Assembly (NCBI GenBank): GCA_040389105.1
Contig: JAZKAO010000029.1
Location: forward strand, 390-64,389
Length of the DNA stretch: 64,000 bases
Direction of reading: 5' to 3'
Source: Bacteroidota bacterium
GTDB lineage: Bacteria > Bacteroidota > Bacteroidia > Sphingobacteriales > Sphingobacteriaceae
In this document: positions 4,768 to 27,878 of the stretch, one piece after another
Layout of the letters: each line of letters opens with the position of its first letter
Numbering within the stretch: position 1 is the stretch's first letter
Program-made: the position numbers and the translations under genes
Notes under the pieces: model-generated
What the model was told of the DNA's origin: nothing
The model's input: the letters and a program-made list of their open reading frames with translations, nothing else
Databases searched by the model: none

Positions 4768-4783
4768 GTACCTATAAAAACTT

Positions 4784-5010
4784 GTCATTGCGAGGTACGA
4801 AGCAATCGCACACCCAAAGAGCGGTCTTGCATAGTTCGCGATTGCTTCGTACCTACCCATGGCAGATTTAGTGCAGGGTATCATGGTGAGCTTGTCGAAC
4901 CATGGTGGGCAGGCCTACGCACGCACCCTTCGACAGGCTCAGGATGACACCCTCCTCTCTGTCATTCAAACCTTTATAGTTCCCGCCGGGATTTGATTAC
5001 TCGCAATGAC
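4784..5010. repeat. Composite REPIN: family A element whose right arm is interrupted by a family C hairpin
   Basis: Left arm 4784-4809; right arm begins 4838-4854 and resumes as CTCGCAATGAC at 5000-5010; inside is TCATGGTGAGCTTGTCGAA (4881-4899) / TTCGACAGGCTCAGGATGA (4929-4947). Confidence 0.75.
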
Positions 5011-5018
5011 AAAATTCA

Positions 5019-6158
5019 CTACATCAACAATATATCTATCCTGTGCGCATGCACCATATTCAGCGCTGCCGACCAGGCGAATAGCGTAAAATGCCCGTCC
5101 TGGGATGCTACCATGGCCTGGGCCCCGCGCTGATCGTATACAAACTGGGCCGCTGCTAAATGCCGGGTACCACCGTTTTGGGCAGGGTGCATATATTGCG
5201 GTGTACCATCGGTAACCGGTTCGGTAACAATCATCTGGTCAACCGGGATGCTGAGTTCAGACCGGGCCACTTTCGCGCCAAAGGCCAGTAGTTCGTTATC
5301 GCGGTTTATAATGGTAGCGCCATCTACAGCCGTAAACCCGCCGATGATATCTATCGCGTTACGCAGGCTTTGTTTCCATTCCATATTACGCTCATGCTTC
5401 CCCTGTCTCAATAAATCTGCAATCACCGTATAAGGTGGATCGACCGGGTAGGAGATGGGGTGGATCACCGAGTTATGCCATTCGGTCGATCCCGTGGGAA
5501 CGATCAATACCAAACCGCCACGGTTATGCGCACGCATGGCCGTAGCCAGTTCCACCAATATATTAAACGACCCACCGGGTGCCGATGGCAACGGCATATC
5601 CAGCAGGGATTCTATCAGTTCGGGGCAATTATCAATGCTGATATTATGCTCATCCACCATTTTAATTTCATCGCCGCGCAACACACAAATATTCACAAAT
5701 TTGCCAAAGCCGTCCGTACGGCGGTGCTTAATGACTAACAGGCCCGGTTCAACCACTTCCAGCACAAAACAAATACCGGGGATTTGATGAGTAGTACCCC
5801 AAACGTGCAGGGCATCGTCATCGTACCAAACACCTAAGTGTATGCCGGGCTGCTCAACAGCTGGTGCCAGTTTGGTTAGGTTTTTGGGTGTAAGGCGTAA
5901 CTTGTTTTCAAATATCAGGGGCTTATCAGCCTGTTGCGGTGGTAAAAACGCGATGGAAATTTTAGGCGGATGCCCTTCCTCGCGCCGTAGACTGGCCCAA
6001 AAAGCGATATCTACAATAGACTCAATAACCGAAACAGAGGGCACATAGGCCAGGTCGCGCTCGTCCAATTGACGGGCAACTTCCAAATGCCTTAAAAGGT
6101 GGGCCTCAATTTTGGTGGCCACCATGCGGGCAGCCAGGTACGATGGTTCGGATAACAT
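5019..6158 (-). CDS. Putative diadenylate cyclase (DAC/DisA_N) domain protein with N-terminal DACNV-like sensor domain
   Basis: C-terminal AVDGATII and GGTRHLAA match the DAC DGA and RHR motifs; no TM segment. Confidence 0.7.
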   Translation of the reverse strand: MLSEPSYLAARMVATKIEAHLLRHLEVARQLDERDLAYVPSVSVIESIVDIAFWASLRREEGHPPKISIAFLPPQQADKPLIFENKLRLTPKNLTKLAPAVEQPGIHLGVWYDDDALHVWGTTHQIPGICFVLEVVEPGLLVIKHRRTDGFGKFVNICVLRGDEIKMVDEHNISIDNCPELIESLLDMPLPSAPGGSFNILVELATAMRAHNRGGLVLIVPTGSTEWHNSVIHPISYPVDPPYTVIADLLRQGKHERNMEWKQSLRNAIDIIGGFTAVDGATIINRDNELLAFGAKVARSELSIPVDQMIVTEPVTDGTPQYMHPAQNGGTRHLAAAQFVYDQRGAQAMVASQDGHFTLFAWSAALNMVHAHRIDILLM

Positions 6159-7455: not shown

Positions 7456-8286
7456 ATGATTTTATTTCTTCGCCGTTTATGGGTATTTGGCTGGCAGCAG
7501 GCACTAGCCTGCATATTCCCGGTGCTGGTGTTTACTATGCTGGGGATCTCGCATTTGGTTTCAGGCTTTATCCCCCGGTACGATTTTATGCTGATAGCCT
7601 GTATCGGCATCCAAATTATCCTGTACAAAACCAAAATTGAAACATGGGATGAGGTGCTGGTCATCTGTATCTTTCACCTGTTGGGCTTAATGATGGAATT
7701 GTTTAAGGTGCACATTGGCTCCTGGGCATACCCCGAATTTGCCTACACCAAAATAGGTGGCGTGCCGCTATACAGTGGCTTTATGTACGCCAGTGTGGCC
7801 AGTTATCTGTGCCAGGCCTGGCGCCGGCTGGATGTGCAGATAACAAACTGGCCACCGCGCCTTACCGCACGCTTATCGGGCGCGGCTATCTATCTTAATT
7901 TTTTTAGCAATCATTTTATGCCCGATATGCGGTATGTGATCGGGCTGTTTATCCTGTACTTTTTTAGGCGTGCTACAGTGACTTTTAAGTTAGAGAACGG
8001 CATTTACCGCATGCCGGTAGTGCTGTCGTTCCTGCTCATTGGCTTCTTTATATGGATGGCCGAAAACATGGCCACGCTGCTTGGCGCATGGAAGTACGCC
8101 TATCAGCACAATAACTGGGCAATGGTTGATTGTCAAAAGATCAGTTCGTGGTTTTTCCTGGTGATTGTTAGTTTTATCATCGTGGCTGAGTTAAAAATGC
8201 TGAAGCATGATGGCGAAAAGCATGATGGCGATTTAACCACAGAGGCCACAAAGAGAGAACCACAGAGATCACAGAGCATTTTATGA
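7456..8286 (+). CDS. DUF817 family membrane protein
   Basis: RYDF, ELFKV..GSW.YP, GVPLYSGFMYASV.SY, FIW.AEN..T..GAW.Y motifs. Confidence 0.85.
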   Translation: MILFLRRLWVFGWQQALACIFPVLVFTMLGISHLVSGFIPRYDFMLIACIGIQIILYKTKIETWDEVLVICIFHLLGLMMELFKVHIGSWAYPEFAYTKIGGVPLYSGFMYASVASYLCQAWRRLDVQITNWPPRLTARLSGAAIYLNFFSNHFMPDMRYVIGLFILYFFRRATVTFKLENGIYRMPVVLSFLLIGFFIWMAENMATLLGAWKYAYQHNNWAMVDCQKISSWFFLVIVSFIIVAELKMLKHDGEKHDGDLTTEATKREPQRSQSIL

Positions 8287-8341
8287 TCTAAAACCAAACT
8301 TTGTGTTCTCTGTGAAAACCTCCGTGATCTTTGTGGTTAAA
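8232..8341. repeat. TTTAACCACA-ended element built from 9-mer (CCACARAGR) units
   Basis: Terminal IR TTTAACCACAGAG / CTTTGTGGTTAAA; second copy at 27746-27878. Confidence 0.8.
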
Positions 8342-8358
8342 TCATAACCTAATCCTAT

Positions 8359-8366
8359 TATATTTG
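8359..8366 (+). promoter_or_regulatory. -7 promoter box for the kinase-DUF3037 pair
   Basis: TATATTTG fits TAnnTTTG, 8 nt upstream of ATG 8375. Confidence 0.55.
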
Positions 8367-8374
8367 CCATCGAT

Positions 8375-9166
8375 ATGAACACCCCGCCGCAATTACGAAC
8401 TGTTAATGTAACCCGTTACGTTACCCCCCTGCGCGAGGGCGGCTCGCTGCCGGCTATTGCCGAGGCAGATGATGGTTTTTTGTATGTATTAAAATTTCGC
8501 GGTGCGGGGCAGGGCGTTAAGGCCCTGATTGCCGAACTGATAGGCGGCGAGATTGCCCGTACAATAGGTCTGAAGATCCCCGAACTGGTGTTTGCCAACC
8601 TGGATACCGCCTTTGGCCGTACCGAACCCGATGAGGAAATACAAGACCTGTTGAAAGCCAGTGTTGGTTTAAACTTAGCCTTGCATTACCTGTCGGGTGC
8701 TATCACATTTGATAGGTCGGTTACCGTGGTCGACCCTTTACTGGCATCAAAAATAGTTTGGATGGATTGCCTGCTGACCAATGTTGACCGTACCCCACGC
8801 AACACCAATATGCTGACGTGGCACCGCGAATTATGGCTGATAGACCATGGCGCGGCCTTGTATTTTCACCACTCCTGGCATAATTGGGAAGAGCAGGCCA
8901 AGCGACCATTTGTGCAGGTGAAAGACCATGTGCTGCTGGCCTACGCATCCGAACTGGATGCAGTTGATACCGAACTGAAAGCCATATTAACCCCCGAAGT
9001 GATCCGTGCCATTGTAGGCCTTATCCCAGATGAATGGCTGACTACCGAATGGGAAGAATCGCCCGACGAGGTGCGGAATATTTACGCGCAGTTTTTGGAA
9101 ACACGTATAGCGTCATCGCAAATTTTTGTAAACGAAGCACAACATGCAAGAGAAACACTTATTTGA
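8375..9166 (+). CDS. HipA-like (PI3/PI4-kinase fold) protein kinase
   Basis: LREGGSLP loop, YVLKFRG (Lys), NVDRTPRNTNML (catalytic loop), LIDHG (Mg-binding). Confidence 0.8.
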   Translation: MNTPPQLRTVNVTRYVTPLREGGSLPAIAEADDGFLYVLKFRGAGQGVKALIAELIGGEIARTIGLKIPELVFANLDTAFGRTEPDEEIQDLLKASVGLNLALHYLSGAITFDRSVTVVDPLLASKIVWMDCLLTNVDRTPRNTNMLTWHRELWLIDHGAALYFHHSWHNWEEQAKRPFVQVKDHVLLAYASELDAVDTELKAILTPEVIRAIVGLIPDEWLTTEWEESPDEVRNIYAQFLETRIASSQIFVNEAQHARETLI

Positions 9167-9527
9167 GTACGCAGTGATCCGCGTTGTGCCCAGGGTTGAA
9201 CGCGAGGAGTTTATTAACGTTGGTGTCATCCTTTTCTGCGCCAAACAGAAATTTTTGCAAGCCATTTATACACTCGATCCCGACAGGATGAGATGTTTCT
9301 CCACCCAGCCGGATATGGATGAGTTAAGGGAACACCTTTGCATGTTCGAATATATTTGCGTTGGCAGCCCGCAAGGCGGCCCAATTGCCTTGCTCGATCC
9401 GGCTTCGCGCTTCCGTTGGTTAACCGCTACCCGTAGTACGGTGGTACAATGCTCAAAAGTACACCCTGGTTTATGTACCGATCCGGCTGAAACTTTAGCC
9501 AAATTACACTGGCAATTGGTGCTGTAA
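9144..9527 (+). CDS. DUF3037 family protein
   Basis: FEYAVIRVVPRVEREEFINVGVIL and RFRWLTA.RSTVVQ.S.VH motifs; 23 nt overlap with the kinase. Confidence 0.85.
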   Translation: MQEKHLFEYAVIRVVPRVEREEFINVGVILFCAKQKFLQAIYTLDPDRMRCFSTQPDMDELREHLCMFEYICVGSPQGGPIALLDPASRFRWLTATRSTVVQCSKVHPGLCTDPAETLAKLHWQLVL

Positions 9528-9535
9528 TCATAAAT

Positions 9536-9622
9536 ATTTGTCATTTCGAACGTAGAGAGAAATCTTGTACGTCAAGACAGTCCGCTCGATTAAGATTTCT
9601 CTCTACGTTCGAAATGACAAAT
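9536..9622. repeat. REPIN-like inverted repeat, family B (GTCATTTCGAACGTAGAGAGAAATC arms)
   Basis: 31 bp perfect IR 9536-9566 / 9592-9622. Confidence 0.9.
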
Positions 9623-11661: not shown

Positions 11662-13431
11662 ATGAACCCTAAAAGCCCTTTAGCCGAACAGCATAACCTG
11701 CTAAGCGAAGCCAAATTTCGCTTAAAGGCATCGTTGTTAATGGGCAAAAGGCAAGTGCAAAACCTGTGGGCAGGCCCGGCGCGATATAGCGATAGCGCAC
11801 AGTTAAAAGATCAACCCATTATTGCCCTATCCGAAAGTGAACTTTGGAATAAGGACGATAATGAACAAAACTGGATCCTAACTGCCGGCAAAGTACAAAA
11901 CCTGCGATTAGCTGCTAAAAAACTGAATGGGTTAGAGATTCCCGCTAACCAGGTATTTAGCTTTTGGAAACATATTGGCAACCCCAACATCGGCAAAAAA
12001 TACGTTGTCGGCCGCGAGATTAGGGAGGGGTGTATTATACCAACTATAGCGGGCGGGTTATGTCAGTTATCCAACGCTTTGTACGATGCTGCCCTAAAGG
12101 CTAATTTTGAGATTGTTGAACGCCATAAGCATACCCGAGTTATAAAAGGATCGTTAGCCGAGCAGGATAGGGACGCCACGGTGAAGTGGAACTATGTGGA
12201 CCTGCGTTTCAGATCGGGCCATGCCTTTAGGATAGAGGTGGGGCTGACGGCCGATAAACTGGTGATCGCTTTCCGCAGTACCGAAAAAAATAACGCCTTT
12301 AATGATGATGGCATCCGGTCATTGATGCAATCATCTAAACTGAATGACTGTTACTCCTGCGGCAATTTTCAATGCTTTAAGCATCCCGATGGCATACCTG
12401 TTAAACGTGAAAGCGCTATTACCACCTATATTTTGGATGATAAGTGGGACGAGTTTGATGAATATATTAAAACACAGGCCACCGATACGGATTTTTTTAT
12501 TGCCCCGCTAATTAATAACCGTTTTATTAAAGCAAGCCGCTATAATTGGTGGTTTAAAAATCCGGCTAATGCCAGGGCTTTAACGCTGGTGGCCTTACAA
12601 AGGGCCCTATTAATGCGCTGGTTTAATAAATCTAACATATTTGGGTTGATGCTGCGGTTGGATAAAAGAGTGGCCAAAGCTGCGGCGCGGAAGATCCCCA
12701 TGGCAAGTACACATTTGGTTATCTCGCAAAACTTACTACCGTATTTATGGCAGGAAGGCGCTTTAGGTGGCCGCACATTTGATGTGCTGATGACGCGCCT
12801 GCCGATGGAAAAACTGCACGAGCGGCTGGATTTAGCCCACAGTAAATTCCCCGATAGTACTACCCTTAATGATTTTCGCGCCCCGCAAAACTTAATAGAT
12901 ATGGAAAATGCCGCCCTCACTCAATCGCGTTGTGTTATTACACCGCATACCGAGGTGGCCGGTATTTTTAATAACAAATCCCTTAAACTAAATTGGGTTT
13001 TACCCAAAATGGCACCAAAAATACCGGTACCGGGTGGCCGCATCCTATTTCCGGCATCGGCTTTAGGCCGCAAGGGCGCTTATGAGCTTAGGCAACTGGC
13101 TAAGGAACTAAATTTACAGGTAACCATAACAGGCAAAGCCACCGAAAATGCTAACTTTTGGGATGGCATTACCACCAGCTTTACTACCGGCGATATATTC
13201 GAAAATATCAGTATGGTGATATACCCTGTCTATGTGGAGCATCAGCCCCGGTTGTTATTAAAAGCTATAGCGGCGGGCTTGCCCGTTATTACCACTACAG
13301 CTTGCGGATTAATGCCGGCTGATAATTTAACCATAGTGCCTGTTGGCGATAATAATGCTTTGAAAAAAGCGGTTGTTAACCAAATAAATATGCCGGTGCA
13401 GACAAAAAAAGAAGCGGCATGCGCCGGTTAA
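11662..13431 (+). CDS. VanW domain fused to a glycosyltransferase (GT-B, GT4-like) region
   Basis: VanW: FSFW..IG, GGGLCQLSN-like AGGLCQLSNALY, ERH.H, DATV..NYVDLRF. C-terminus: GRKG and EHQPRLLLKAIAAGLPVITT..CG. Confidence 0.75.
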   Translation: MNPKSPLAEQHNLLSEAKFRLKASLLMGKRQVQNLWAGPARYSDSAQLKDQPIIALSESELWNKDDNEQNWILTAGKVQNLRLAAKKLNGLEIPANQVFSFWKHIGNPNIGKKYVVGREIREGCIIPTIAGGLCQLSNALYDAALKANFEIVERHKHTRVIKGSLAEQDRDATVKWNYVDLRFRSGHAFRIEVGLTADKLVIAFRSTEKNNAFNDDGIRSLMQSSKLNDCYSCGNFQCFKHPDGIPVKRESAITTYILDDKWDEFDEYIKTQATDTDFFIAPLINNRFIKASRYNWWFKNPANARALTLVALQRALLMRWFNKSNIFGLMLRLDKRVAKAAARKIPMASTHLVISQNLLPYLWQEGALGGRTFDVLMTRLPMEKLHERLDLAHSKFPDSTTLNDFRAPQNLIDMENAALTQSRCVITPHTEVAGIFNNKSLKLNWVLPKMAPKIPVPGGRILFPASALGRKGAYELRQLAKELNLQVTITGKATENANFWDGITTSFTTGDIFENISMVIYPVYVEHQPRLLLKAIAAGLPVITTTACGLMPADNLTIVPVGDNNALKKAVVNQINMPVQTKKEAACAG

Positions 13432-22610: not shown

Positions 22611-22761
22611 ATATGTATAAATTGTGATCGGGAAATGGCTGATACAGCAGCGTGCCACATTAGCTGTGCAAATTTAGCAATTGCAGGCTTAATATAGCTA
22701 AAGGCACCGGTAAACAAAAAAAACCTTTAGACTTCCGACTAAAGGCTTTTGACTTAAAGAG

Positions 22762-22833
22762 TGCTCCCGACGAGATTCGAACTCATATCGATGGTACCGG
22801 AAACCATAATTCTATCCGTTGAACTACGGGAGC
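22762..22833 (-). tRNA. tRNA-Arg(CCG), CCA not encoded
   Basis: Acceptor GCTCCCG/CGGGAGC, anticodon arm ATGGT-TTCCGGT-ACCAT, T-loop GTTCGAAT. Confidence 0.95.
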
Positions 22834-27745: not shown

Positions 27746-27878
27746 TTTAACCACAAAGATCATAAAGGGAGAATCCACAAAGATCATAAAGGAATATTAA
27801 AAAATATCTTTTAAACAATTTCCGTCATAAAAGCTTTGTGGCCTTTGTGCAAAAAACTTTGTGTGCTTTGTGGTTAAA
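27746..27878. repeat. TTTAACCACA-ended element, second copy
   Basis: 13 bp perfect terminal IR TTTAACCACAAAG / CTTTGTGGTTAAA; internal direct repeat CCACAAAGATCATAAAGG twice. Confidence 0.85.

Follow-up and report, generated by a model that had tools for sequence, protein, structure and literature searches.

The 64,000-nucleotide (nt) stretch of Bacteroidota DNA analysed here, hereafter the window, is part of contig JAZKAO010000029.1, and all positions given are those of the window. At 8375-9527 it carries two overlapping genes, the first for a protein kinase of the HipA_2 family and the second for a protein that consists of a DUF3037 domain. The features of this pair are the following.

8375..9166, + strand: HipA_2-family protein kinase gene, 263 amino acids (aa), stop codon included; assigned through Pfam, PADLOC and homology to DS-6A
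8492-8494, 8786-8788 and 8843-8845, + strand: codons of the kinase catalytic residues K40, D138 (catalytic loop, which also holds N143) and D157 (metal-binding), respectively
9144..9527, + strand: DUF3037 partner gene, 127 aa, stop codon included; pure DUF3037
9144..9166, + strand: overlap of the kinase and DUF3037 genes, 23 nt, in different frames

An earlier reading of the letters alone (the sequence-only reading) had placed both open reading frames (ORFs) and their 23 nt overlap exactly here. It had also described the kinase motifs as intact, the small partner as lying downstream of the kinase and a HipB-like helix-turn-helix (HTH) gene as lacking, and each of these observations was borne out. 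The gene upstream of the pair encodes a DUF817 protein and the gene downstream a PAS/HisKA/HATPase/REC hybrid histidine kinase, so that no HTH gene adjoins the pair, and the order of kinase and partner is the same in homologous pairs.

Domain assignments and active site

In Pfam, the kinase matches HipA_2 (PF20613) with E = 2.8e-17 and 63.2 bits, against a cutoff of 27, over model positions 6-213 of 240. It is a divergent member of that family, as seen from the 258 bits scored by DS-6A, the kinase of the Escherichia coli system DS-6 discussed below. The partner matches DUF3037 (PF11236) along the whole of the model, positions 1-118 of 118, with E = 1.2e-45 and 155 bits (cutoff 22.6). Both proteins also match models of PADLOC-DB 2.0, the kinase PDC-M66A (E = 1.8e-23, 81 bits) and the partner PDC-M66B (E = 3.5e-9), the latter only at positions 3-66 of 281 or 23% of the model. 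A search of NCBIfam gave no match for either protein.

The motifs containing K40 (YVLKF), D138 (NVDRTPRN) and D157 (IDHG) are invariant across 33 close homologues. In a second, wider alignment, which includes relatives of 47-53% identity and DS-6A, these three residues remain invariant along with E54 and N143, both of which are likewise invariant among the close homologues. The full set of further invariant positions in the wider alignment is E21, G22, E54, N136, R139, N143, N145 and H158. The active site of the kinase is complete and under selection. In the partner, T94 and S98 are invariant and are common to DS-6B, the DUF3037 protein of DS-6, in a pairwise alignment.

Some database names for kinase homologues point elsewhere. 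The records P0003, P0005, P0051, P0097 and P0102 are named 'aminotransferase class I and II', and a relative of the kinase in Sulfurimonas phage SNW-1 is labelled 'aminotransferase'. Since Pfam reports only HipA_2, these names look like propagated misannotation.

Relation to known HipA-DUF3037 systems

A full-text literature search for DUF3037 led to experimental studies of homologous pairs, dating from 2025-26. In Sphingobacterium daejeonense, Retron-Sda1 is accompanied by genes for a HipA-like kinase and a DUF3037 protein, which suffice on their own to defend against phage Bas51: deletion of the kinase abolishes defence, deletion of the DUF3037 gene is toxic, and the reverse transcriptase (RT) and non-coding RNA of the retron are dispensable (PMC12548924). 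The same work describes DUF3037 as 'strongly associated' with HipA-like proteins across nr (PMC12548924). The E. coli system DS-6 was validated by DefensePredictor and renamed HipAD; its kinase, DS-6A, loses defence in a D139A mutant, while DS-6B combines DUF3037 with DUF1829, and AlphaFold3 predicts a contact between the two (ipTM 0.76-0.79) and a weaker one between DS-6B and DNA (PMC13092281). An independent discovery of HipAD is credited to Brenes & Laub 2025, as cited in literature on DS-6 (PMC13092281). In GenBank entry PV340545.1, from Escherichia phage PhiR5_1, such a pair lies between cI and kil and is annotated 'HipA toxin' and 'HipD antitoxin'. We found E. coli HipAD in 284 of 5426 complete genomes (5%), with DNA identity of at least 99% in 282 of these 284, a pattern typical of mobile accessory genes.

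The sequence-only reading had proposed the window pair as an undescribed system. This proposal does not stand, the pair corresponding to the PADLOC candidate PDC-M66, which has been validated both as DS-6/HipAD (PMC13092281) and as the defence beside Retron-Sda1 (PMC12548924); at the level of the family, the literature already characterises it. The suggestion that the two genes are a toxin-antitoxin or anti-phage module survives in part, in that homologous pairs do act in this way, but the notion of a mobile defence island does not suit this copy, as the evolutionary data below show.

For a direct comparison, the DS-6 sequences were taken from the supplement of PMC13092281. The window kinase and DS-6A share 26% identity across 226 aa (E = 5e-15), with D138 aligned to the D139 of DS-6A, and the window partner is 26% identical to residues 7-125 of DS-6B (E = 5e-10), which runs some 150 aa further. 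DS-6B accordingly spans positions 6-271 of the 281 in PDC-M66B, against 3-66 for the window partner. In both systems a short HipA_2 kinase, some 250-260 aa long and with its catalytic Asp kept, is followed by an overlapping gene with a DUF3037 domain, and neither has a HipB; both proteins are homologous. They differ in the overlap, 4 nt in DS-6 and 23 nt in the window, and in the partner, since the HipD of E. coli lambdoid prophages, at 275 aa, ends in a DUF1829-like region for which DNA binding is predicted, and the window partner has 127 aa. They differ also in that HipAD is prophage-borne in near-identical copies, while the window form is vertically inherited with deeply diverged synonymous sites.

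Similar remarks apply to the PDC-M66 pair beside Retron-Sda1. The two-gene architecture is the same, its host belongs by taxonomy to the same bacterial family, and the PDC-M66A model scores the window kinase (81 bits) above DS-6A (53 bits). The Sda1-side partner, however, has an extra C-terminal region that resembles retron DNA-binding proteins (PMC12548924), in contrast to the window partner with its 23% coverage of PDC-M66B. Nor is there a retron RT among the genes neighbouring the window pair, and the Rfam search of the region is empty. Two features of HipAD/PDC-M66, namely a two-domain partner of about 275-281 aa and an accessory, mobile and patchy distribution, are therefore both absent from the window pair, which is for this reason not a plain member of that group. 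By comparison of the sequences it is a homologous but minimal form, without the C-terminal domain of the partner.

A 288-aa relative, P0294, is instructive regarding such C-terminal domains. Its DUF3037 domain is 44% identical to the window partner, and its C-terminal region shows no similarity to the C-terminus of DS-6B and has no match in Pfam. The C-terminal extensions of DUF3037 proteins are thus mutually unrelated, which leaves DUF3037 itself as the constant partner domain.

HipA-type kinases are textbook persistence toxins, and the characterised members of the HipA family, such as HipA and HipT, are protein kinases. With HipBA of E. coli K-12 and with HipBST the window pair has in common a HipA-superfamily, putatively protein-kinase-like Ser/Thr kinase and a small partner from the same operon, which in the window would likewise restrain the kinase. 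Unlike HipBA, it lacks an upstream HTH antitoxin and has its partner downstream. Furthermore, HipA has about 440 aa, whereas the window kinase has 263 aa and matches none of the Pfam families HipA_N, HipA_C and Couple_hipA at E up to 1.

Distribution and pairing

Homologue searches returned more than 8000 matches for each protein. Among the matches listed, those of the kinase are 79-95% identical and, where an organism is named, mostly from Mucilaginibacter, with a Chitinophaga protein at 81%; the partner is nearly always 127 aa long. A scan of one genome per species found relatives in at least 559 species. Within the best 80 of these loci, which were analysed further, kinase identity is 72-81% and three orders of Bacteroidota are represented: Sphingobacteriales (Mucilaginibacter, Pedobacter, Solitalea and others), Chitinophagales (Chitinophaga, Puia, Terrimonas and others) and Cytophagales (Pontibacter, Dyadobacter, Runella, Fibrisoma and Arcicella).

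The sequence-only reading had treated the two genes as a unit, and their co-occurrence, far beyond chance, agrees with this. A DUF3037 gene lies directly 3' of the kinase gene in all 79 testable loci from other species, the 80th being cut by a contig end. The overlap measures 23 nt at 72 of the 79 loci, 14 nt at five and 20 nt at two, and the sequence of the junction is kept even at the nucleotide level. The partner has 127 aa at 59 of the 79.

The pair extends well beyond these orders. Bacteroides finegoldii and Parabacteroides distasonis have the short pair at 66-67% identity, that of B. finegoldii with the 23-nt overlap and set among glycoside hydrolase genes. The short architecture recurs in Chondrinema at 60% identity and in Streptomyces and Nonomuraea at 43-49%. 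In the metagenomic loci L081, L084, L085, L086 and L087, DUF3037 proteins with 37-46% identity to that of the window each follow a gene that overlaps their own. Wherever a family was reported for this preceding gene (L084, L085 and L086), it is that of the HipA_2 kinases. An exhaustive search of 50%-identity representatives gave 1644 DUF3037 clusters at E up to 1e-3, and the nearest 150 of these are mostly 125-135 aa in length. Several seemingly long DUF3037 proteins in the same search were rejected as frameshift or chimeric artefacts. In phage genomes only three relatives were found, all weak (less than 31% identity) and all of DS-6 type.

One locus stands apart by its label. L013 (JBPBQV010000035.1), assigned to a metagenome-assembled genome (MAG) of Janthinobacterium lividum, carries a pair 79% identical to that of the window. 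Its place in the tree described below, among Mucilaginibacter and Sphingobacteriaceae, makes it likely that a contig from Bacteroidota was binned in error with a betaproteobacterial MAG.

Mode of evolution

High identity across classes could in principle result from recent horizontal transfer. This was ruled out on two grounds. At 72-81% amino acid identity for the kinase and 57-71% for the partner, four-fold-degenerate sites are saturated (identity about 0.25-0.5), and a neighbour-joining tree follows taxonomy, with Pedobacter, Pontibacter, Cytophagales and most Chitinophaga each grouped by taxon. Nearest neighbours in this tree share their genus in 41 of 48 cases and their order in 62 of 68. 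The evidence points to an old pair, passed on vertically and strongly constrained, and not to recent transfer.

The neighbourhoods of the pair are syntenic within genera and are not common to distant genera. Of 66 locus pairs with at least three flanking orthologues in common, 63 have a kinase whose conservation exceeds the average of the flanking genes, and in 45 of the 66 the same is true of the partner. Relatives of 95% and 91% kinase identity keep the neighbourhood of the window in the order Band_7, DUF2130, DACNV, DUF2809, MpaB, (DUF817), kinase, DUF3037. When the 95% relative is compared with the window, the kinase has the lowest non-synonymous divergence (dN) of nine syntenic genes, at 0.032. 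Its ratio to synonymous divergence (dN/dS) is about 0.025 and that of the partner about 0.04, values which are approximate because dS is 1 or more in this comparison. Both genes are under strong purifying selection.

A recurrent third gene beside the pair was sought across lineages, and none was found beyond lineage-specific synteny. In Pedobacter, the flanks encode isopentenyl-diphosphate isomerase, phytoene synthase, Fpg/Nei, a helicase and a topoisomerase, which we take to be housekeeping functions. None of the 10 proteins neighbouring the window pair, from 7.5 kb upstream to 5 kb downstream, matches a PADLOC model, so the proximity to defence genes raised by the sequence-only reading was not observed. 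Vertical inheritance, within-genus synteny, purifying selection and the lack of defence neighbours together speak against this copy being part of a mobile defence island.

Such a pattern raises the question of whether the pair might be a housekeeping signalling module, the kinase regulating some conserved process and DUF3037 serving as its obligate activator, adaptor or substrate and not as an inhibitor. We regard this, the main alternative to the reading favoured below, as possible though less likely. The conservation data speak for it. It would accommodate the presence of the pair in at least 559 species; the 72-81% identity across Sphingobacteriales, Chitinophagales and Cytophagales at saturated synonymous sites; the 66-67% in Bacteroides and Parabacteroides and 43-49% in Streptomyces and Nonomuraea; the tree neighbours of the same genus (41/48) or order (62/68); the synteny within genera, with the kinase above the mean flanking conservation in 63/66 pairs; the lowest dN among nine syntenic genes; and neighbours that are metabolic or housekeeping in character and match no defence models. 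More speculatively, the invariant T94 and S98 of DUF3037 could be phospho-acceptor sites. Set against this, the only experiments in the family show the logic of an inhibitor, with deletion of DUF3037 toxic and the kinase needed for defence (PMC12548924). Moreover, what backs another role for the partner is co-occurrence alone, and there is no recurrent third gene to point to a pathway. A related and similarly tentative idea is that the short pair serves neither defence nor addiction and is an ancient, vertically inherited signalling unit, made up of a minimal protein kinase and an obligate partner of a fold without solved relatives, with a conserved function in Bacteroidota (gut Bacteroides included) and Actinomycetota, from which HipAD/PDC-M66 would have been derived by the addition of C-terminal domains to the partner.

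Structure predictions

The AF2 model of the DUF3037 protein is of high quality (pLDDT 92.7, pTM 0.85) and shows a predicted fold that starts with a three-stranded sheet, is helical in its middle part and closes with two short strands. A Foldseek search of the PDB with this model gave no significant match (best E = 0.83, TM at most 0.28), which extends to HipB and HipS in so far as their structures are in the set searched. The idea that DUF3037 is a HipS-like mimic of the HipA N-subdomain, which would have drawn the pair closer to HipBST, was rejected on this result.

A Foldseek search of BFVD picked out four uncharacterised phage proteins of 125-287 aa with the DUF3037 fold, A0A6G5YJM1, A0A516KTX2, A0A516KZK0 and A0A6J5NRF1, at TMq 0.56-0.61, probability 1.00 and 12-15% identity. 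According to the predicted models, these may be phage-borne HipD-like proteins or mimics.

The kinase was modelled with moderate confidence (pLDDT 76.8), with a putative protein-kinase-like fold. Its top Foldseek matches are all kinases, and all are weak (E at least 0.012, TM at most 0.48); they comprise CtkA (probability 0.98, TM 0.48), the kinase domain of VPS34 and TTK, and ADCK3 and an aminoglycoside phosphotransferase are also among them. CtkA, the proinflammatory kinase of Helicobacter pylori (PDB 3akk), is a compact HipA-like kinase and the best match by probability, but the identity is 14% and the E-value 0.02, against a window model of moderate confidence, and we know of no DUF3037 partner for CtkA. 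Sequence and profile searches of the PDB yielded nothing meaningful for either protein and no HipA for the kinase, so the label 'HipA-like' rests on the Pfam family and the class of fold.

The company of VPS34, ADCK3 and the aminoglycoside phosphotransferase, matched with similar weight, raises the possibility that the substrate of the kinase is not a protein but a small molecule or lipid, with DUF3037 as a carrier or specificity subunit. A sub-threshold Pfam match of the kinase to PI3_PI4_kinase (E = 0.0046) points the same way. Yet the structural matches are uniformly weak (E above 0.01, TM below 0.5), the best of them by probability, CtkA, is a protein kinase, and so are the characterised members of the HipA family. 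We therefore consider a small-molecule or lipid substrate improbable.

A proposed role for the pair

The reading that we favour, and to which we would give about an even chance, is that the window pair is a chromosomally fixed, minimal HipA-HipD (DS-6/PDC-M66) module which follows the logic of an inhibitor and acts as a switch of growth or stress response integrated in the host. In this scheme the 23-nt overlap would couple translation, such that kinase and DUF3037 are made together. DUF3037 would then bind the kinase directly and keep it inactive. Once free of this restraint, the kinase would turn on some conserved protein of the cell, perhaps a translation component by analogy with HipA-family toxins, and phosphorylate it, and growth would slow or stop. 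The trigger may be phage infection or another stress.

That DUF3037 most likely binds and restrains the kinase follows from its being the only domain that always accompanies it, and the obligate pairing in relatives of 37-46% identity and in Bacteroides finegoldii is counted here as well. The role of inhibitor is drawn by analogy from the homologous systems, where the kinase serves as effector and deletion of the partner has toxic consequences. The predicted DS-6A-DS-6B contact, the alignment of D138 with D139 of DS-6A and the name 'HipD antitoxin' in GenBank are in line with it. Integration in the host is suggested by the missing C-terminal domain of the partner, by vertical inheritance and by a kinase more conserved than its housekeeping neighbours. 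The evolutionary pattern argues for a switch integrated in host physiology in Bacteroidota rather than for mobile immunity.

Several points weigh against the proposed inhibitor-controlled switch. Toxicity, binding and target would be carried over to the short-form pairs from relatives that are only 26% identical. The 72-81% identity across three orders, the taxonomic tree and the within-genus synteny look atypical for a toxin-antitoxin or defence system, as do the absence of PADLOC neighbours and the near-absence of the pair from phage records. Conservation of this core-like kind fits a housekeeping role, in which case the partner need not be an inhibitor. Finally, the partner lacks the predicted DNA-binding domain of DS-6B, so that autoregulation of the HipB type would be absent or different.

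Whichever role applies, the family of gene pairs is already known, and its short, deeply conserved and vertically inherited form is set apart within it. We found no paper describing the conservation or behaviour of this short form, in a literature of which our coverage is incomplete. The commonest form in the sequence space near the window pair is a minimal pair evolving like a core gene, spread from soil Mucilaginibacter to gut Bacteroides and with relatives in Streptomyces, and such behaviour is unexpected of a toxin-type kinase. Should the kinase prove to be a toxin, the depth of conservation would be unusual for a toxin and its partner on a chromosome, and one may ask which cellular decision it controls. 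If it is not, the defence label attached to every HipA_2/DUF3037 pair would be wrong for hundreds of species. With 263 and 127 aa, the two proteins also make a clean minimal system in which to learn how DUF3037 controls a kinase.

Candidate promoter box and flanking repeats

Three further features lie around the pair.

8359..8366, + strand: TATATTTG, a match to the Bacteroidota -7 consensus TAnnTTTG, 8 nt before the kinase ATG
8230..8343, no strand assigned: imperfect inverted/direct repeat element with AACCACAGAG..CACAGAG units, overlapping the 3' end of the upstream DUF817 ORF
9536..9622, no strand assigned: perfect 31-bp inverted repeat, 9536-9566/9592-9622, with a 25-nt loop, starting 8 nt after the DUF3037 stop

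The sequence-only reading had credited the pair with its own -7 box and with repeats on both sides, and all three elements exist at the positions listed. The box is kept in L088, the 95%-identical relative, and in L089, where the surrounding repeats differ. A strict TAnnTTTG match within 70 nt upstream occurs in only 20 of the 80 homologous loci. Its putative function as a promoter is suggested by its sequence, and its position would give a very short or absent leader. A scan for σ70-type promoters and terminators found sites in numbers no higher than in shuffled sequence, and transcript evidence was sought, but for the source, a watershed metagenome, no RNA runs exist.

The downstream inverted repeat folds as RNA with -57.6 kcal/mol (z = -11), and it may serve as a hairpin at the end of the transcript. 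It occurs once in the window; the corresponding sites of L088 and M. mali (L091) lack it, as do all 91 loci fetched. The upstream CACAGAG-type element likewise has no copy in the 91 fetched loci, and L088 and L089 carry a different palindromic element in its place. A further copy of the AACCACAGAG..CACAGAG unit, with three mismatches, lies at 27749-27767, which suggests a small dispersed repeat family in the source genome.

These observations bear on one more alternative, that the pair forms a mobile anti-phage cassette with the flanking repeats as its ends. The match of both proteins to PDC-M66 models, the repeats on either side and the loss of synteny between distant genera would all be in keeping with it. 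However, in syntenic relatives of 91-95% identity the repeats are absent or different and the pair and its neighbours have not moved; synonymous sites are saturated between genera, the tree is taxonomic and defence neighbours are lacking; and the truly mobile version, that of E. coli, is different in kind (284/5426 genomes, 282 at 99% DNA identity or more). A cassette of this sort is hence very improbable. Given that relatives lack the repeats or have another element while the adjacent box is conserved, the repeats are not the ends of a cassette. They are independent small intergenic insertions outside the module, and the view that they form part of it was abandoned.

The upstream element also concerns the neighbouring gene. 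The Pfam match of the DUF817 ORF (7456..8286) stops at residue 240 of 276, and the codons of the remaining tail (…KHDGEKHDGDLTTEATKREPQRSQSIL, 8176-8286) come from a 15-nt tandem duplication (8203-8231) together with the CACAGAG-type element. Insertion of the repeat appears to have extended the ORF.

Other features of the neighbourhood

Neither the Rfam nor the tRNA scan reported anything around the pair, and the sole RNA gene reported by Rfam and ARAGORN in the whole window is a tRNA-Arg (CCG) at 22761-22833 on the - strand.

At 5019-6158 on the - strand lies a gene for a 379-aa protein with a DACNV 'probable sensor' domain (E = 5e-36). Its C-terminal half has a sub-threshold match to diadenylate cyclase (DAC; E = 0.023) and a GGTRH motif. 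Its syntenic counterparts in the relatives are 87-88% identical to it, a high value among the genes around it, and it may be a divergent protein of cyclic-dinucleotide signalling or conflict. Between DUF2130 and DACNV, relatives carry a UPF0175 and DUF3368 pair (L088, 2836-3520; L091, 3712-4399), presumably toxin-antitoxin-like. The window has only about 250 nt there (4768-5018) and the pair is missing, an indel polymorphism.

On the other side, between the hybrid histidine kinase gene and a DUF922 gene, the window has a 589-aa fusion of VanW and glycosyltransferase-1 domains (11662-13431, + strand). The hybrid kinase and DUF922 genes are adjacent in L088-L090, so this fusion gene represents either an insertion specific to the window or a loss in the relatives.

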